Positions 42,631 to 48,487 of a stretch of DNA of 56,486 nt are shown here, piece after piece. Source of the DNA: an uncultured delta proteobacterium (GTDB taxonomy: Bacteria; Desulfobacterota; Binatia; UBA9968). The notes beneath the pieces are model-generated. The model did no database searches. It was not told where the DNA came from and saw nothing but the letters and a program-made list of their open reading frames with translations. The stretch is from positions 1 through 56,486 of the forward strand of contig CAWJBB010000082.1 in NCBI GenBank assembly GCA_963840855.1. The letters run 5' to 3'. Every line of letters begins with the position of its first letter. Positions within the stretch are counted from its first letter, which is position 1. Both the position numbers and the translations under genes were made by a program.

Positions 42631-43149
42631 CAAGCTTGCCCCTTTTCTGATCCGAGATGTTTTAGCATTGTTGCGCCCGTTCAAGGGGTGCCTAGGTGAT
42701 TCTTTTTGCATAACTCAGGGCTGCCGGTGACATGTGTTGGTTACCGCCGTTGCTGCCAGCTTCCACCCCTGCAAAAATATCGCCGTTGGGAGAGACCCAG
42801 TCCGGGCAATGTTGCGGGTCAACGTGTGACCGAATCTAGCGGCCCACCAAGTTAGCTGGGCTGTAAAATAGGCTAAGATGATGATCAAGGTCAAGGCCCA
42901 ATCGTAATTATAAGCCCGGGTCCTGATAATAGGCTCCCTTTGTGTTTTTGCATTGCTCTGAAGCAACCTTGGTGCCAAGCCGGGCGCTGCCCGACTAATG
43001 CGATGCAAGAATCCGAATTAGCAGATATCTGCGCAGTGCCGTAGTCCGCCTCTAAACAGGAGCTAGATGAAGTGAAACTATTGTTTACGGAAGGCGTAAA
43101 CTTAATTGTCGACCTAAACTCAACTAAAAGAGGGGTCTACCATCGAATT

Positions 43150-43355
43150 TAGCAGGTAGCAGGACCGAAGAGAATCCAGTATAACAGGTCCTGACGAGGG
43201 TGTGGCTCTTGGGGTCAGTGGCCTGTTCATTCAGGCTCGCATGGCCTGAAATGCTGCCCTCGTCACCTGCATCATCCGAGGGGTCGACCGGGATGGTGCC
43301 ATATTCTCACCAGAATACGTGGCTCTGTAAGTAGACGAGACCGAAGGATGATGAA
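43150..43355 (+). ncRNA. IS110 bridge RNA (5' hairpin, target-binding loop, donor-binding loop)
   Basis: Stems AGGACC/GGTCCT, TGACGAGGG/CCCTCGTCA, GCCTG/CAGGC and CATCATCC/GGATGATG; loop segments match the target and donor sequences; exact ends are inferred. Confidence 0.85.
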
Positions 43356-43384
43356 TCGATCTTGTTTACGGAAGGAGGAGCTAC

Positions 43385-43510
43385 GTGTCAGAGATAAAAT
43401 CTTTAGAGCTTCGAGTCAGTGTGGATGTGGGATCACGACGCCACAGCGTGGCAGTAGGGCTGCCCGATGGGCGGGTGTTGGAGGAGTTTGAGATAACTCA
43501 CGGGCCTGAA
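43385..43510 (+). pseudogene. IS110 recombinase, 5' fragment (42 codons)
   Basis: GGAGGAG RBS, GTG start, SVDVGSRRH containing the first Asp of DEDD; cut by IS21 after ..THGPE. Confidence 0.9.
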
Positions 43511-43663
43511 TGGCCGATTTCACGGAACGTACCCACCCAATTTCAACGAAGGGACCCACCTGATTTCACGGAAGGGACCCACCCCATTTCAGGTGGTACC
43601 CTTCGTTTTCTGAGCTAAGCGACGAACGATGCTACCTTGGCCAACTGGAGGAGGATCCAGTTG

Positions 43664-45181
43664 ATGGCCAAAGAGAGGACCAGCGTTCGTATGCAAGCGC
43701 AAATCAAAATTCTGTCCGAACAAGGGCATTCCATTCGCAGCATCGCCCGGATACTGAGGCTTTCGCGCCGAACCGTGCGCAAGTTCTTGGAACCAGCCCC
43801 ACAACCGACCTCTGAGATCGGCGGCTGGATGGAGACGCTTGACTGGGAGTATGTCCGCCAGGAAGTCTATGGCAAAGGGACCACGGTCAAGCAGATCCAG
43901 AGGGAAGTGGCCCCCGATATCGCGTACGTAAAGTTTTGGCGGGCGTTTCGGGAGAAGGTCAGTGCGCAGGCCTCACCCGATCAAGTGACGATCCGGCTCG
44001 ATCATAAGCCCGCGGAAAAAACCCAGATCGATTTCTGTGACGGTCTGTTTCTCACCGACCCGGTCACCGGCCATAAAACTCTCACACAGTTTTTCTTAGG
44101 CGTGTTGCCGTTCAGCTCGTATTTCTTCGGCGAGTTCGTTCTAGATCAAAAGCTTGCCACGTTTATCGGGGTCCAGAGCCGCATGTTCGCCTACTTTGGT
44201 GGGATCACCCCCTACGTGGTCGTGGACAATCTCAAAAGCGGTGTCCACAAGGCCGATCTGTACGACCCCGATGTCAATGCCACCTACTGTGACTTTGCCA
44301 ATCACATGGGCTTTGCTGTTCTGCCGGCCAGGCCCCGAAAGCCCCGCGACAAGGGCTCGGGAGAAAGCCACATCGGAGTGGTCCAAAGGAGTTTTTTCCA
44401 GGAGGTCCGTAACCGCGTCTTTTATTCGCTCCCCGAGCTCAATCAAACGCTGCGGGACTATCTACAGCGGCTCAACTACGAAGTGATGAAAGACTATGGG
44501 GTGAGCCGCTCCCAGCGCTTCGCTGAAGAGAAAAAGCAGTTAAAAGCCCTGCCGGCTTCGCCCTTCGAGCTCAGCGAGTGGCGGCAAGCTAAAGTCCATC
44601 CCGACTGCCATGTCCAGGTGGAAAAAAACTTCTACTCGGTCCCCTTTGTTTACGTCGGCCAAATAGTCCGGGTCAGACTCACGGAGAAAATCGTCGAACT
44701 CTTCAGCGAGGACAGCCAATGCCTTACCGCGCACCCAAGACTTAGGGGCATCGGACAGTTCTCCACCTATGATTTCCATTATCCAGAAAAAAAGCTTAGC
44801 GTAGCGCGCTTCGAAATCCGTCACGCCCAACAGCAAGCCAAACAGGTCGGCCCCCATGTCGAGAAGTTGGTCGACCAGCTGCTCTCGGGCCACCATCCGC
44901 TGCGCCATCTACGGCGGGTCCAAGGGATCTTGCGGCTTTCAAAACGCTATCCCGTCACCCCTCAAGCTCTGGACCACGCCTGCCAGCGCGCCCTGAGCTT
45001 CAACAAAACACGGCTCGCCTACATCAAAGACTGCGCCCTTTACTTTGTCGCCCACGGTCAAAGACCGACGCTGCTTACCCCAAAGAGAAAGCCCGATACC
45101 GTTCATCTGCACCAATACGGCGCCGATTCGGACTCGGATCCAGAACCGTCCTTGCCTTCGGTGGAGGAGGAAATCCTATGA
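43664..45181 (+). CDS. istA: IS21 transposase
   Basis: N-terminal HTH; QIDF, VVDNLKSGV, PRDKGSGE and YSVP motifs. Confidence 0.95.
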   Translation: MAKERTSVRMQAQIKILSEQGHSIRSIARILRLSRRTVRKFLEPAPQPTSEIGGWMETLDWEYVRQEVYGKGTTVKQIQREVAPDIAYVKFWRAFREKVSAQASPDQVTIRLDHKPAEKTQIDFCDGLFLTDPVTGHKTLTQFFLGVLPFSSYFFGEFVLDQKLATFIGVQSRMFAYFGGITPYVVVDNLKSGVHKADLYDPDVNATYCDFANHMGFAVLPARPRKPRDKGSGESHIGVVQRSFFQEVRNRVFYSLPELNQTLRDYLQRLNYEVMKDYGVSRSQRFAEEKKQLKALPASPFELSEWRQAKVHPDCHVQVEKNFYSVPFVYVGQIVRVRLTEKIVELFSEDSQCLTAHPRLRGIGQFSTYDFHYPEKKLSVARFEIRHAQQQAKQVGPHVEKLVDQLLSGHHPLRHLRRVQGILRLSKRYPVTPQALDHACQRALSFNKTRLAYIKDCALYFVAHGQRPTLLTPKRKPDTVHLHQYGADSDSDPEPSLPSVEEEIL

Positions 45182-45351
45182 GCACGAGCTTAAAATCCAG
45201 CCGCAAAGCCATTTTTAATCATCCAGACAAGCAAGCGGGAAAAAACGGCCTCCGTATAAGCCCTATAAACGACGATCTCGGCTCGGTTGATACCTGGGGT
45301 TCCCCCAAAAACAGCCCTTTCACCAAGAGGTCGCACCACCATGATGCTTGA
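45178..45351 (+). CDS. 57-aa ORF between istA and istB
   Basis: GGAGGAGG RBS, ATGA overlap with the istA stop, and its own stop overlaps the istB start. Confidence 0.35.
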   Translation: MSTSLKSSRKAIFNHPDKQAGKNGLRISPINDDLGSVDTWGSPKNSPFTKRSHHHDA

Positions 45352-46111
45352 TCAAGTCAGAGCCCTCTCGCACCAGATGCGCCTGTTCGGCATCCATGAA
45401 GCCTGCGAACGACAAGCCCAGATCGCTTTGTCCCAGCAGTTCCATCCCCTGGAGTTCCTCCGACTCCTGCTCGAAGATGAACTGTTGTCGCGCAAAGACC
45501 GTACCGCTAAGGCGCTCATGACCAAGGCCCGCTTTCGGTTCCGCGCCGATCTGGAAGACTTAGATTTAGCGTTCCACAAGGATCTGACCAAGGCTAAGAT
45601 CAAAGAGCTCTGTGAATTAAACTTCCTTCATAACCAGGAGAATCTTTTGATCCTTGGAAAAACCGGCCTGGGTAAAACTCATCTCGCCATTGCCTTGGGT
45701 AAACGGCTGTGCCAGGAAGGCCATCCCACTCAGTTCTTGCCAGTCAACTTCCTGTTCGAGGAAATCCAGGCCGCCAGGGCCGCCGGCCGTTACCTCAACT
45801 ACATCCGTAGTCTCATCAAGGCCAAGGTTTTAATCCTCGATGACTTAGGGCTAAGAAACTACACCCACGAGGAGGCCACTTCCCTGATGGACATCCTCGA
45901 AGAGCGTTACCGCAAGGCTCCCCTCATTGTCACCTCCCAGGTCGAGCCCCAGGGGTGGATAAAACTGTTTGAAGATCCGGTGATCGCCGAAGCCATTGTG
46001 GATCGGCTGATTCATCCATCTCAGAAAATCACTCTGAAAGGAGAGAAATCCTATAGAGAAAAACTTGCAGAGAAAAAATCGGGATTGAAAAACCAGGGAG
46101 GCTCAGTGTAA
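45341..46111 (+). CDS. istB: IS21 helper ATPase
   Basis: GKTGLGKT Walker A, LILDDLG Walker B, AIVDRLIH. Confidence 0.95.
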   Translation: MMLDQVRALSHQMRLFGIHEACERQAQIALSQQFHPLEFLRLLLEDELLSRKDRTAKALMTKARFRFRADLEDLDLAFHKDLTKAKIKELCELNFLHNQENLLILGKTGLGKTHLAIALGKRLCQEGHPTQFLPVNFLFEEIQAARAAGRYLNYIRSLIKAKVLILDDLGLRNYTHEEATSLMDILEERYRKAPLIVTSQVEPQGWIKLFEDPVIAEAIVDRLIHPSQKITLKGEKSYREKLAEKKSGLKNQGGSV

Positions 46112-46205
46112 AAGTCAAAATCGCTTCGTCGCTTCGCTCCGCTGATTTCAGTGGTCCCCTTCGTTGAAATCGGGTGGGTCCCTAAAGTGAAATCGAGCAC
46201 CTGAA

Positions 46206-47363
46206 GGGTTTGGAGAGTTTTTCTCCCGCATCGAGAAACATCAAAAGGAGAACGGCTGTGGGGTGGCGGTAGCGATGGAAGGCTACAACGGCTGGGCACG
46301 GCCACTCGATAGCCTGGTGCGCCAGCGCGGTTATCGGCTTTACAACATCAACAATCTGAAGCTAGCGCGATTCAAGGAGATCTTTCCTGGGGCGGCCAAG
46401 AAGGATCGGATAGATGCGCGCAAGGGATTGGAGCTGTTTCAGCTCCGCGATCACCTACTTTTGGTCAAGGAAGTCCTGCAGGAGGTTACGGGAACGCCCA
46501 AGGAAAATGAAATTCTTAAGCGGCTCACCCGGCGCCGGCGCAGACTGGTTAACGAGCGGGTGCGGGTGGTCAATAATCTTCAAGCCGATCTGCAGGCGGT
46601 CTGTCCTGGACTGCTGGAGATTACTACTGAGGCAAGCAATCGGTGGTTTTTAAATTTTCTTCTCAGCGTTGATACCCTGCCCCAGCTGGCTCGGCTTCGA
46701 AAACCGAGTTTACTGAAGATTGCTGCCGTAGGCAGAAAATACGCAAGCGTCATCCAGGCCTGGCAGAAGCGGGCGCATTTTAGCGAGGAGGTGGAGTGGG
46801 TAGGCGCAATGATCCACGAAGACGCAGAGCGCTGTCTTGAGCTCGAAGGGAAGATCAAAGCGCTGGAGAGCAAGATTAAAGAAGTGGCCAAGGACTCCAG
46901 GATCGCCAAGATTTTATTATCGATTCCCGGCTTTGGACCGGTGTGCACTTCGGAGTTAGCGGGAGAGATCGGCACAGTGGAGCGCTTCAGCAAGGAAGGA
47001 AGTTTAGCTCTATACCTAGGGATGGCCACGTTGGACAACAGTTCGGGTAACTATCAGGGGTCCAAACAACCCAAGCACGTCAACACGCGAGCTAAGGCCG
47101 CGATGATGACAGCCTTGGATCGGCATCGAAAGTATGTGGCGGAGTCTCAAAGATATTATGCAAAGAAACGCAGCGAGGGAAAGAAGCACAACCAGGCAAT
47201 CCGTGCCCTGGGGCGCCACCTCTGCCGTGTCATCTACAAAATGCTCAAGGACCAACGCGAGTACCAGCTTCGCTCTGAAAAAGGGAATACCAAGGCCAAG
47301 GTCAGGTCGAGATCGTCGCTTAAAACGGCTCTACGGAGGTCGAAAATCTCAGCGAGCAGCTAA
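46206..47363 (+). pseudogene. IS110 recombinase, 3' fragment
   Basis: In frame with the 5' fragment once IS21 is removed: GFGEFF..AMEGY, KKDRIDA, SIPGFG, YLG..NSSG; 427 aa restored. Confidence 0.95.
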
Positions 47364-47430
47364 AAACAGAAAAATATCTATCAGAGCCCGTGAAGACCGG
47401 CTGTCCTGCTTGAAATTTCCAGCGGGATGA

Positions 47431-48408
47431 TCAGGCATGCCTAATTGATCTTTTCGCTGTCTTTCCTCTTCTCAGATTCTCGCAAAGCTTCTCGACGACC
47501 TCGCCTAGCTCATGGTTCTTGGACAATTCATCTGCCAGCTTGCCGATTCCTCGGCTTAACGCCCCCGCGTCTTGTCGTAACTCTTTTGCCATCTCTTGAT
47601 TGGTGAAGCCCCCCACCTCCCTCGCTATCCAAGCCATCACCCGCTTCGCCTTGGCGTTTTTTCTCCCACGCCCGCGGTGCAACGCGACCGACGGCGGGAG
47701 ATCGAAATATTTGCAAACGGTGTCTTTAACCTCCGCCCATGTTAGTTCTACAACGCTCGGAGGGTCTCGGTCGGCGACTCGCTCTTCAACGTTTTCGACA
47801 AACTGCTCATCCCCCAGGTACCTTTGCTCCACGACATCATACAGATCGTCTCGGTGCCCCACTTGGAGCCCGTCACGGACAAAGCGTCGATAAGCCGTAA
47901 TGGCTTGCGCCGGACTTTTTGCGAACAGCGGGAGAACCTCGTCTACCACAATCCATTCCTTCCCGACTCCTTCCAAGTAAGCTTTATGGCTGCTCCATTG
48001 GTACTGATCGGGGTCTTTGACGACCTTGCTCCGTACCGGATTTAAATGCAGATAGCGGATCAGCTCTAATAGATAGCTATCCTTATCGCACAGAATCGCT
48101 TTGTAGCGCCCCTGAAATAAATGACCGATCTTTCTATTCCTCGCATTCCAGTAGCGGGTATAACGAAAGAGAATATTCTGCATGACCTTCGCGAGCGGCG
48201 TCCGACCGATCTGAATGAGATGATGAACGTGGTTGCCCATTAACACGTAAGCATACAGACTGTACTTGAATCTTCGTTGGCTTTCCCGAAGCAGATCTAG
48301 GTAGCGCAGACGATCATCATCGTCCTTGAAGATCGCCTGTCCATGATTGCCGCGGGCCATGACATGATAGAGAGCGCCGGGGAAATGGACTCGTGGTTTT
48401 CTCGCCAT
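47431..48408 (-). CDS. Y1 HUH transposase (REP-associated tyrosine transposase type) with C-terminal HTH
   Basis: YHVMARGN, LMGNHVH, GHLFQGRYKA, RYLHLNP and WSSH motifs. Confidence 0.95.
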   Translation of the reverse strand: MARKPRVHFPGALYHVMARGNHGQAIFKDDDDRLRYLDLLRESQRRFKYSLYAYVLMGNHVHHLIQIGRTPLAKVMQNILFRYTRYWNARNRKIGHLFQGRYKAILCDKDSYLLELIRYLHLNPVRSKVVKDPDQYQWSSHKAYLEGVGKEWIVVDEVLPLFAKSPAQAITAYRRFVRDGLQVGHRDDLYDVVEQRYLGDEQFVENVEERVADRDPPSVVELTWAEVKDTVCKYFDLPPSVALHRGRGRKNAKAKRVMAWIAREVGGFTNQEMAKELRQDAGALSRGIGKLADELSKNHELGEVVEKLCENLRRGKTAKRSIRHA

Positions 48409-48417
48409 GGTGGCGGG

Positions 48418-48446
48418 AGGCTATCTGAATAATAGTATAAGGTCAA
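48418..48446 (-). promoter_or_regulatory. Probable promoter of the Y1 transposase overlapping the right TIR
   Basis: TTGACC-17 nt-TAGCCT-9 nt-ATG. Confidence 0.55.
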
Positions 48447-48487
48447 TTAGGCATGCCTGACCCCCATTCCGTTACTGAAAAGACCTT

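Follow-up and report, generated by a model that had tools for sequence, protein, structure and literature searches.

A probable bridge RNA in the left end of an IS110-group insertion sequence nested in the terminal repeat of a Y1 transposable element

We analysed a stretch of 56,486 nucleotides from an uncultured delta proteobacterium (GTDB lineage Binatia; GenBank assembly GCA_963840855.1, contig CAWJBB010000082.1), to which we refer as the window. Between positions 42900 and 49000, direct reading of the sequence together with the list of open reading frames (ORFs) and matches to Pfam and NCBIfam reveals three nested mobile elements. The innermost host is an element built around a gene for a Y1 transposase. 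An insertion sequence (IS) of the IS110 group occupies one of its terminal repeats, and an IS21-family element has in turn inserted into the IS110 recombinase gene. The non-coding left end (LE) of the IS110 element very probably specifies a bridge RNA, the guides of which match the tip of the Y1-element repeat and the joined ends of the insertion sequence itself. The coordinates of all features are collected in Table 1.

The left flank of the IS110 element reads ...GAGGGG-TC (43132-37) and is followed, from the LE start at 43138 onwards, by TACCATCG. On the other side, the right end (RE) finishes with ...CAGCGGGATGA (last base 47430), after which come TC (47431-32) and AGGCATGCCTAATTGA. A TC core is found at both junctions (43136-37 and 47431-32), as a preliminary description of this DNA, made from the sequence alone, had stated. 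GGGG joined to the right junction from the core onwards (TCAGGCATGCCTAATTGA) agrees in 22 of 22 letters with the second inverted repeat of the Y1 element, which lies unoccupied at 48443-48464 on the minus strand, and we placed the element boundaries on the basis of this identity. The second repeat represents a paralogous, scarless empty site. It contains GGGGTCAGGC on the minus strand at 48455-64, which confirms the unoccupied copy of the target that had been reported there. Without the IS21 insert the IS110 element measures ~1.6 kb, with an LE (247 nt) that is longer than the RE (67 nt) and that holds the non-coding RNA. The Y1 gene terminates with TGA on the minus strand (47431-47433, TCA on the top strand), and this stop codon overlaps the TC of the target core. 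As the core is duplicated upon insertion, the IS110 element disrupts neither the reading frame of the Y1 gene nor its stop.

The recombinase is an IS110-family DEDD/Ser enzyme, as judged from matches to PF01548 (E = 1.7e-10, C-terminal piece) and PF02371 (E = 3.1e-14). The C-terminal piece in the window is 97% identical to an intact relative of 427 aa, P0001, which scores 177.4 bits with the NCBIfam model 'IS110 family RNA-guided transposase' (cut-off 140). The window gene had been assigned the same length, and its frame indeed adds up to 427 aa, with 42 codons before the IS21 insert and 385 codons after the IS21 duplication. We compared P0001 to IS621 (PDB 8wt6), a distant homologue of the recombinase (phmmer E = 1.1e-8). 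Here, D14, E67, D109, D112 and S322 align with D11, E60, D102, D105 and S241, with the residue matching counted by hand and the 2-residue offset of the chain applied. The catalytic S322 is invariant in 15 relatives, and the window recombinase retains the sequences VSVDVG and AMEGY. The IS21 element encodes IstA (43637-45181, 514 aa) and IstB (45287-46111, 274 aa), its ends read TGGCCGATTTCAC... and ...GTGAAATCGAGCA, and it is flanked by a 6-bp duplication, CCTGAA, at 43505-10 and 46200-05. It splits the recombinase after codon 42, and the window copy is inactivated by it and cannot move itself. Of the features that define the IS110 group, the element has those that can be judged on sequence, apart from the broken gene of the window copy. 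The locus had been introduced as a 'distinct programmable recombinase'. An IS110 recombinase with a TC core is what we find, but the wording was overstated, as the architecture is the one expected for IS110, programmability is something we infer, and the window copy is dead.

All motifs and stems that the preliminary description had named in the LE are present at their positions. We shuffled the 247-nt LE 50,000 times with its dinucleotides preserved and searched for the words of the target pair (6-mer + 6-mer, in order and at most 60 nt apart) and of the donor pair (7-mer + 5-mer). The target pair occurred in 99 and the donor pair in 138 shuffles. The matching words are short (5-7 nt), and GGGGTC recurs in the LE at 43280-85, as one might expect if short G+C-rich words resembled each other by chance in a G+C-rich structured region; yet both pairs in the right order were found in 0 of the 50,000 shuffles, and the layout recurs, with covariation, in 98 distinct relatives, which makes a chance resemblance barely credible. 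The second GGGGTC (43280-85) is part of a stem. It lies in GAGGGGTC (43278-43285), which exactly repeats the 8 nt at the end of the left flank (43130-37), probably by coincidence. We set it aside as a functional guide: it forms one strand of a covarying GGTC/GACC helix (helix 5 below) and varies in distant relatives. The LE folds with a minimum free energy (MFE) of -100.1 kcal/mol (z = -4.95 relative to 200 shuffles). In the MFE structure of the single sequence, the 5' hairpin and loop 1's basal stem are retained, the two target guides are paired to one another, and loop 2 takes another fold than in the drawing of the preliminary description. Because of this disagreement, the drawing needed support from the family.

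Among 8,000 candidates scored, 3,250 relatives of the recombinase were found at E <= 1e-20, the top 120 of which all share at least 83% identity and are mostly 427 aa long. We fetched 78 loci from species genomes (45-91% protein identity) and 80 of ~428 metagenome matches. The host labels of the metagenome-assembled genomes (MAGs) in the species set include Binatia, Nitrospira, Verrucomicrobia, Proteobacteria, Acidobacteria and others. From these 158 loci and the window, 113 LE rows could be parsed, 81 of them with a right flank of at least 12 nt, and the alignment comprised 98 distinct left ends. We excluded from the counts any locus in which an LE anchor or RE motif could not be recognised, and one locus (L159) from the flank and guide counts, its RE match (core CC, length 1452) being a false match of the regular expression. 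Because TC or CC was imposed at both junctions by the anchors, the constancy of the core in the relatives is partly given by construction.

We next to the single-sequence fold consider the consensus that RNAalifold yields for the 98 left ends, in which six helices are formed and two large internal loops remain. The helices are a closing helix (GCAGG/CCUGC), the basal and apical stems of loop 1, and the basal, middle and apical stems of loop 2. Over the 39 pairs, 97.4% of 3,787 cells are standard pairs compared with 91.2% in shuffled alignments, and 25 of the 39 pairs are changed on both sides compared with 11.7 in shuffled alignments and 7-15 in alignments whose partners were slid by 1-3 columns. 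For the covariation score we obtain 0.246, compared with 0.137 for shuffled and at most 0.063 for slid alignments, and none of 500 shuffles reaches any of the five structure measures. Related sequences can beat shuffles without any structure; the slid controls, in which relatedness is preserved, likewise give far lower values. Helix 2, the basal stem of loop 1, comprises nine pairs, five of them changed on both sides (in column 110/177, for example, AU 50 and GC 45), and is 99.4% paired. Five of the seven pairs in the apical stem of loop 1 (helix 3) are likewise changed on both sides. For helices 4, 5 and 6, the paired fraction is 96.9%, 94.6% and 98.0%, and the number of pairs changed on both sides is 3, 3 and 4, respectively. 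The closing helix, GCAGG(T)/(A)CCTGC, encloses the 5' hairpin and loop 1 together and was absent from the earlier drawing. The 5' hairpin is the least alignable region, and a spanning hairpin of at least 5 pairs is found in 57 of the 98 relatives when these are folded singly. The check on homologous left ends that had been proposed thus keeps the two-loop fold and adds compensatory changes to it, although the MFE of the window alone draws loop 2 otherwise; we accept the loop-2 stems as first drawn because the family alignment supports them.

Some left ends depart from this layout or carry additional features. L060, L061 and L067-L069 contain an extra structured insert of 40-50 nt between the LE start and the closing helix, and in L060 and L061 the stretch from the gene to the RE end is unusually long (>400 nt). 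A Bipolaricaulis MAG (L093) has two left ends, at 1241-1471 and 1882-2112, ~640 nt apart on the same strand, which suggests tandem or nested copies. In the window, an exact 14-nt direct repeat, TTGTTTACGGAAGG, is found at 43081-43094 and 43362-43375. Its first copy lies in the left flank within a terminator-like hairpin (43083-43101) and its second copy in the LE just before the ribosome-binding site (RBS) of the recombinase; in 17 other loci the word occurs once, in the LE.

We investigated whether the guides in loop 1 follow the flanks of the relatives. In the window, the left GGGGTC and the right GCCTGA match the target as originally described, but over the full right guide the match is 6/7, with TCAGGCC predicted and TCAGGCA found in the flank. 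A pairing of CAUGGCCUGA in the window with TCAGGC-ATG via a one-base bulge was tried and rejected, having no support in the family. In 75 distinct pairs of right guide and right flank, on average 4.28 of 7 non-core positions match, compared with 3.42 after permutation (sd 0.108), and 0 of 10,000 permutations are as high, a count that overstates independence as guide and target preference are shared by descent among related elements. With wobble pairs allowed, the values are 5.08 and 4.60. The excess is confined to target positions 4-7, and there is no signal at positions 8-12 in the 75 distinct pairs. As the signal is gone from position 8, we assign a length of 7 nt to the right guide. Complete guide switches are seen as well: ACUGGA is found beside TCCAGT flanks (L146, L152, L154), GACUUGA beside TCAAGTC flanks (L054, L055, L056, L073), AGUCUGA beside TCAGACT flanks (L081, L130, L185, L187) and CUCUGA beside a TCAGAG flank (L069). 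Across the relatives, (T)GGGG-TC is nearly fixed in the left guide as well as in the left flank. Where the left guide has a T at -3, the flank has T in 4/6 cases compared with 8/99 otherwise (Fisher p = 0.0014). Inspection of the flanks of other copies had been suggested as a check. The left flanks of 91/111 relatives end with GGTC and the right guide covaries, but in the window genome itself (7.1 Mb, 93 contigs) we found no other full copy, only two decayed LE remnants. One (L002; G000:C79:40912-41058, minus strand) shares 83% identity over 147 nt, is preceded by GGGTC and is cut off inside the donor-binding stem. The other (L003; G000:C1:87568-87617) shares 86% identity over 49 nt and is also preceded by GGGTC. 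Both are traces of earlier insertions in this genome.

A rival account is that the RNA supplies only a short, near-fixed match of ~11-12 bp and that the specificity for Y1-element ends comes from the recombinase or the ribonucleoprotein, which would read the DNA structure or sequence of the repeat, for example the AGGCATGCCT palindrome beside the core. Such dual recognition would account for the left guide and left target being almost invariant across relatives of 45-97% protein identity, for the short matched stretch, and for the many right flanks that begin a palindrome or a long inverted repeat. The 10-mer target is no commoner in the window genome than its reversed control (10 compared with 16 matches), yet the one full copy sits in the Y1 repeat. 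The arrangement would resemble that of ISPpu10, for which a preprint reports a target stem-loop that adds specificity beyond pairing (10.64898/2026.03.19.712850). However, the right guide follows the flank at positions 4-7 and in some relatives has switched completely, to match TCCAGT, and dual recognition would add to a bridge-RNA mechanism rather than replace it. We consider it an unlikely account of the site.

Turning to loop 2, the left donor guide CGGGAUGGU matches the RE end CGGGATGAT over 7 nt, followed by one wobble or mismatch and one core base. The motif is present in 109/112 relative rows; one row has no match, and L090 and L107 read GGGATGA. GGGATG, from the left donor guide, and GTAGAC, the right donor guide with its following C, are each invariant in 98/98 left ends, and so is the LE start TACCA. 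On the opposite side, the REs end with CGGGATG and then T (40), A (38), G (2) or C (1) (n=81), with T or A in 78/81. Neither the donor guides nor the element ends vary, which leaves no covariation between them. Loop 2 had been said to match the circle junction with one G for A. The match is present, but the G is not a mutation: it occupies a family-wide non-Watson-Crick position opposite the base before the core. The same position in IS621, left donor position 7, is mismatch-tolerant (PMC11208160, section 10). According to Hiraizumi et al. (2024, PMC11208158), the nucleotides that follow the right guides on their 3' side have to avoid pairing with the cognate DNA and, once strands have been exchanged, should pair with the other DNA at positions 6-7, the handshake rule. 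The C that follows GUAGA can form a pair with target G7 (G in 108/111 flanks) and none with A or T at donor position 7. For the A that follows the right target guide, a pair is possible with donor T7, present in 40/81 relatives, and impossible with target G7.

The joined ends may also form a promoter. Reading both ends by hand, the joined RE-core-LE sequence would contain TTGAAA, a spacer of 17 nt and TACCAT, and TTGAAA is found at the -35 place in 67/81 relatives. Junction promoters of IS110 elements have their -35 element in the RE and their -10 element in the LE, brought together upon joining (PMC11208160, section 5). We infer that TTGAAA/TACCAT is a candidate promoter that would form only when RE and LE are joined. 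A scan for sigma-70-like promoters in the integrated context (42950-43520) found no site, a result without bearing on other sigma factors.

We compared the left end to RNA libraries from soil. Six metatranscriptome runs contain 30-46% of the sampled words of 43050-43520, and contigs from four runs (three studies) cover 43179-43483 at 90-100% likeness, some of them continuing from the LE into coding sequence. These data are contigs without starts or ends that may derive from DNA, and the parts they leave uncovered are uninformative. Neither a form without the IS21 insert nor a joint across IS21 was seen in these contigs. Together they give a weak hint that the left ends of relatives are transcribed along with the gene start. 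The LE could alternatively be a cis-acting leader or a DNA end-binding site, involved in translation control or recombinase binding, with the guides being leftovers of target and ends. The LE runs straight into the RBS, the contigs pass from it into the gene, and unvarying donor guides are indistinguishable by covariation from protein-binding sites. On the other hand, compensatory changes in six helices represent selection on an RNA fold and not on a DNA sequence. Within each of the two internal loops, one guide occupies the 5' side and the other the 3' side, in the strand polarity described for IS621 (PMC11208160, section 7), the right guide changes along with the flank, and the handshake C fits the non-cognate DNA. 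A leader or end-site is for these reasons very unlikely.

Table 1. Features of the nested elements in the window and of the predicted bridge RNA
Feature	Position	Strand	Description and basis
Y1 element, innermost host, 1,038 bp			Two inverted 22-nt repeats GGGGTCAGGCATGCCTAATTGA around a 325-aa Y1 gene
Target sequence			GGGGTCAGGCATGCC
Left target half GGGG + core TC	43132..43137	+	Outer tip of Y1-element inverted repeat; direct reading
IS110 left end (LE), non-coding, 247 nt	43138..43384	+	Holds predicted bridge RNA, ~43150-43353; 3' end is recombinase RBS
TACCAT, candidate -10 hexamer of junction promoter	43138..43143	+	Direct reading
Closing helix, 5' strand GCAGGT	43152..43157	+	Pairs with ACCTGC 43265-70; columns 62-66/185-189: 5/5 pairs changed on both sides, 97.9% paired
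5' hairpin	43161..43192	+	AGGACC 43161-66 / GGTCCT 43187-92; present in window MFE; most variable part
Loop-1 basal strings	43192-200 / 43257-65	+	TGACGAGGG / CCCTCGTCA; direct reading
Target-binding stem-loop (loop 1)	43193..43264	+	Basal 43193-43201/43256-43264, internal loop, apical 43218-25/43232-40
Loop-1 guides as first described	43211-16, 43244-49	+	GGGGTC, GCCTGA; direct reading
Left target guide GGGGUC	43211..43216	+	Equals left flank + core 43132-37, top-strand sense
Loop-1 apical strings	43221-25 / 43232-36	+	GCCTG / CAGGC; direct reading
Right target guide GGCCUGA	43243..43249	+	Reverse complement of core + right target
Loop-1 candidate handshake nucleotides AA	43250..43251	+	First A forced by RTG anchor; only RE side informative
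Loop-2 basal strings	43270-77 / 43346-53	+	CATCATCC / GGATGATG; direct reading
Donor-binding stem-loop (loop 2)	43271..43352	+	Basal ATCATCC/GGATGAT, middle GGTC 43282-85/GACC 43339-42, internal loop, apical ~43298-43323
Loop-2 guides as first described	43289-97, 43331-35	+	CGGGATGGT, GTAGA; direct reading
Left donor guide CGGGAUGGU	43289..43297	+	Matches RE end CGGGATG (47423-29); next two bases are G, facing A/T of donor position 7, and U, for first core base
Right donor guide GUAGA + handshake C	43331..43336	+	GTAGA is reverse complement of TC + TAC (43136-40), 5 nt
Recombinase codons 1-42	43385..43510	+	GTG start, first DEDD aspartate (VSVDVG); ORF list; aligned to IS621 D11 via intact relative P0001
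IS21-family element, 2,689 bp, inside recombinase gene	43511..46199	+	Pfam + NCBIfam matches; ends and duplication read directly
Recombinase codons 43-427	46206..47363	+	In frame, no further stop; PF01548 + PF02371; open frame 390 aa
IS110 right end (RE), 67 nt	47364..47430	+	TTGAAA 47410-15 (candidate -35) and left donor CGGGATGA; direct reading; conserved in relatives
Core TC + right target half AGGCATGCCTAATTGA	47431..47448	+	Inner part of Y1-element repeat; direct reading
Y1 (IS200-like) transposase, 325 aa	47431..48408	-	DnaA-C-like helix-turn-helix (HTH) tail; gene of targeted element; ORF list + PF01797
Unoccupied second inverted repeat GGGGTCAGGCATGCCTAATTGA	48443..48464	-	Intact target copy; direct reading

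The target had been described as the terminal repeat of a Y1 element, and this is borne out by the 22/22 repeat and by Y1 genes found to the right of the RE in relatives. The Y1 protein of the window scores 45.8 bits with PF01797 (cut-off 23) and 22.2 bits with PF08299 (below the cut-off of 31.5). With the NCBIfam model for the repetitive extragenic palindrome (REP)-associated tyrosine transposase (RAYT), NF047646, it reaches 69.4 bits, below the cut-off of 80. A Y1 homologue lies directly right of the RE in 10/59 relatives with a right flank of at least 300 nt, and in 0/88 left flanks of at least 300 nt. Among the 10, the start of the Y1 gene faces the insertion sequence in 7 and its end in 3, as in the window. 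Both orientations of the Y1 gene are seen, and both repeats of the Y1 element are thus used. An inverted partner of the target (no more than 2 mismatches in 14) was found in 12/72 right flanks. Six of the partners are located at 903-995 nt, around a Y1 gene; the other six, at 22-214 nt, look like gene-less mini elements.

The window genome contains eight Y1 matches, the window gene and seven diverged paralogs (29-37% identity). The sequence GGG(G)TCA(G/A)G... is found 50-60 nt before the start codon in 4/8 of these genes, namely that of the window and the third- to fifth-ranked paralogs, not the second. The paralogs L193, L194 and L195 (32-34% identity) carry this same tip, and L193, on contig C1 (G000:C1:95891-96911), has both inverted repeats ~1 kb apart. 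As paralogs share it, the tip is a family feature of the Y1 elements. The target 15-mer occurs exactly only at 48443-48464 in the genome; with up to 2 mismatches there are 17 matches compared with 3 for the control. The idea that the target is a high-copy REP in the window genome is rejected by the 10-mer counts given above.

These findings together indicate that the claim of a bridge RNA with a target and a donor loop was well placed: it is supported by the fold of 98 left ends, by the covariation of the right guide, and by donor guides and ends that are invariant. Several observations, in addition to the shared descent of guides and targets, weigh against this interpretation. The effect of the right guide is moderate (4.28 compared with 3.42 of 7), and the largest guide class, GGCUUGA (15 pairs), is mostly found beside TCAGGTC, which requires two G-U/G-T wobbles. 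The permutation effect of the left guide is small (4.44 compared with 4.30 of 7, with 26 of 10,000 as high), and the proposed pairing of this guide rests on identity, one covarying position aside. In the window the match extends over 6 + 6 nt, which is shorter than the 8-9 + 4-7 nt of IS621, with position 7 of the right guide mismatched. In the RNAalifold consensus, GGG of the left target guide is also paired with CCU of the right one, and loop 1 could be partly closed. The second core base is unmatched in the 5' donor guide, with a G where a C is expected. The subclade to which the window element belongs has donor A7, leaving the handshake A of loop 1 unpaired. No RE-LE joint was seen in the RNA-library contigs. 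An Rfam scan of 42800-47700 with E values up to 10 returned no relevant match, although we did not check whether Rfam 15 has a bridge-RNA model; weak matches to CyVA-1 and RAGATH-1 hammerhead, far below their gathering scores, are unrelated and lie inside the IS21 part. Finally, neither a Y1 gene nor an inverted partner is present within 1.5 kb in ~47/59 right flanks of at least 300 nt, an approximate number that was combined by hand from the sets of 59 and 72 flanks and in which two of the six partners without Y1 gene (L114, L118) plausibly have less than 300 nt, giving 47 and not 43. The description 'Y1 end' fits a substantial part of the sites, not all.

Taking these points into account, we still regard a bridge RNA as the much more probable identity of the LE. 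The anatomy with its exact matches, the conserved fold with its compensatory changes, the covariation of guide and flank and the association with Y1 genes are observations; a mechanism that would connect them can be drawn in analogy to IS621. An intact relative would excise as a circle. Joining of RE and LE would place TTGAAA of the RE 17 nt from TACCAT at the LE start and may thereby drive transcription of the LE. The RNA would fold into the closing helix, the 5' hairpin and two stem-loops with internal loops, loop 1 pairing with the target and loop 2 with the circle junction, and the DEDD/Ser recombinase would exchange strands at the TC core. It is likely by the same analogy that the RNA is made and bound by the recombinase, and that pairing rather than protein sets the site. 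As its preferred target, the clade would use the tip GGGG-TC-A(G/A)G(C/T)(C/T)... of the terminal inverted repeats carried by a family of 1-kb Y1 (RAYT-like) elements and by their gene-less derivatives.

We compared the element to other IS110 systems. For 85.7% of IS110s a bridge RNA has been predicted (Durrant et al. 2024, PMC11208160, section 12), and IS110s are known to target REP elements (PMC11208160, section 5). The RNA of IS621 consists of a 5' stem-loop and, after it, a pair of stem-loops with internal loops, the first of which is variable and the second conserved (PMC11208160, section 6), and the core is contained in all four of its guides (PMC11208160, section 7). As in IS621 (PMC11208160, PMC11208158), we find a DEDD + Ser recombinase, a long LE and a short RE, and a 2-nt core at both junctions. 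The LE RNA likewise shows a 5' hairpin and two internal-loop stem-loops, in which the 5' side of the loop has top-strand sense and the 3' side is the reverse complement, with the core included. Further likenesses are a position next to the core that tolerates a mismatch in the left donor, a candidate handshake nucleotide that follows the right donor guide, candidate -35 and -10 elements divided between RE and LE, and a target located in a repeat that is associated with a Y1 transposase. Unlike IS621, the window element has a distant protein of 427 aa rather than 326 aa, a TC instead of a CT core, and shorter matches of 6 + 6-7 nt compared with 8-9 + 4-7 nt, and it is known from sequence alone. 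It differs also in the extra helix that closes the 5' hairpin and loop 1, in a 5' donor guide that leaves the second core base unpaired, and in its target, the low-copy terminal repeat of a 1-kb Y1 element and not a high-copy REP.

IS4321 and IS5075 (cited in PMC11187229) offer another parallel, being IS110-superfamily elements that are reported to insert in one orientation at the terminal inverted repeat of another transposon. They differ in belonging to the IS1111 group, with the guide RNA in the RE, sub-terminal inverted repeats and a DDE Tn3-family transposon rather than a Y1 element as host. ISPpu9 and ISPpu10 of Pseudomonas putida are IS110s found in REPs or conserved intergenic palindromes, and a target stem-loop is proposed as a second layer of specificity (PMC12288879; 10.64898/2026.03.19.712850); hosts, targets and clade are other than ours. 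The Y1 element itself can be compared to known arrangements. A Y1 gene flanked by inverted REPs is termed a REPtron. In the arrangement known for RAYTs (RAYT family: PMC2817692, PMC5581495), a likeness is seen to the Y1 gene of the window, which lies between two inverted 22-nt repeats, each with a short palindrome. It differs from that arrangement in that the window Y1 protein scores below the NCBIfam RAYT cut-off and has a DnaA-C-like HTH tail, the repeats are not amplified, and there are eight diverged Y1 matches, not one copy.

Bridge RNAs, REP targets, targets at transposon ends and a target stem-loop as determinant are all already in print, and the window element is an ordinary member of its class that leaves the understanding of bridge recombination unchanged. 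The clade may already stand in the supplementary tables of Durrant et al. What the window provides is a clean natural example that shows all four guides, a candidate handshake nucleotide, a candidate junction promoter and an unoccupied target within a single stretch of DNA, with nearly 100 relatives behind it. The TC-core IS110 clade is very common in soil metagenomes and distant from IS621, and it could add an orthogonal bridge recombinase for engineering. The nesting of IS110 elements in REPs and transposon ends is extended to poorly described 1-kb Y1 elements with GGGGTCAGG tips, and we make no claim that the Y1 + DnaA-C family is unpublished. The most interesting residue, in our view, is the clade-wide, orientation-fixed link to Y1 tips, together with a right guide that appears degenerate and rich in wobble pairs. 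A tentative explanation, to which we give slightly less than even credence, is that these 427-aa IS110 recombinases, a clade widespread in soil with thousands of relatives at 83% identity or more, have specialised as parasites of another mobile element, the Y1 element. Their bridge RNA would keep the near-fixed left guide GGGGUC for the conserved tip of the repeat, and its short, wobble-rich right guide (commonly GGCUUGA/GGCCUGA) would tolerate the variation of the repeat across phyla, with the RE always facing the Y1 interior. If so, safe-harbour sites across Binatia, Nitrospira, Verrucomicrobia, Proteobacteria and others would be provided by Y1 elements and their gene-less derivatives, and the degeneracy of the guide would be an adaptation rather than decay.

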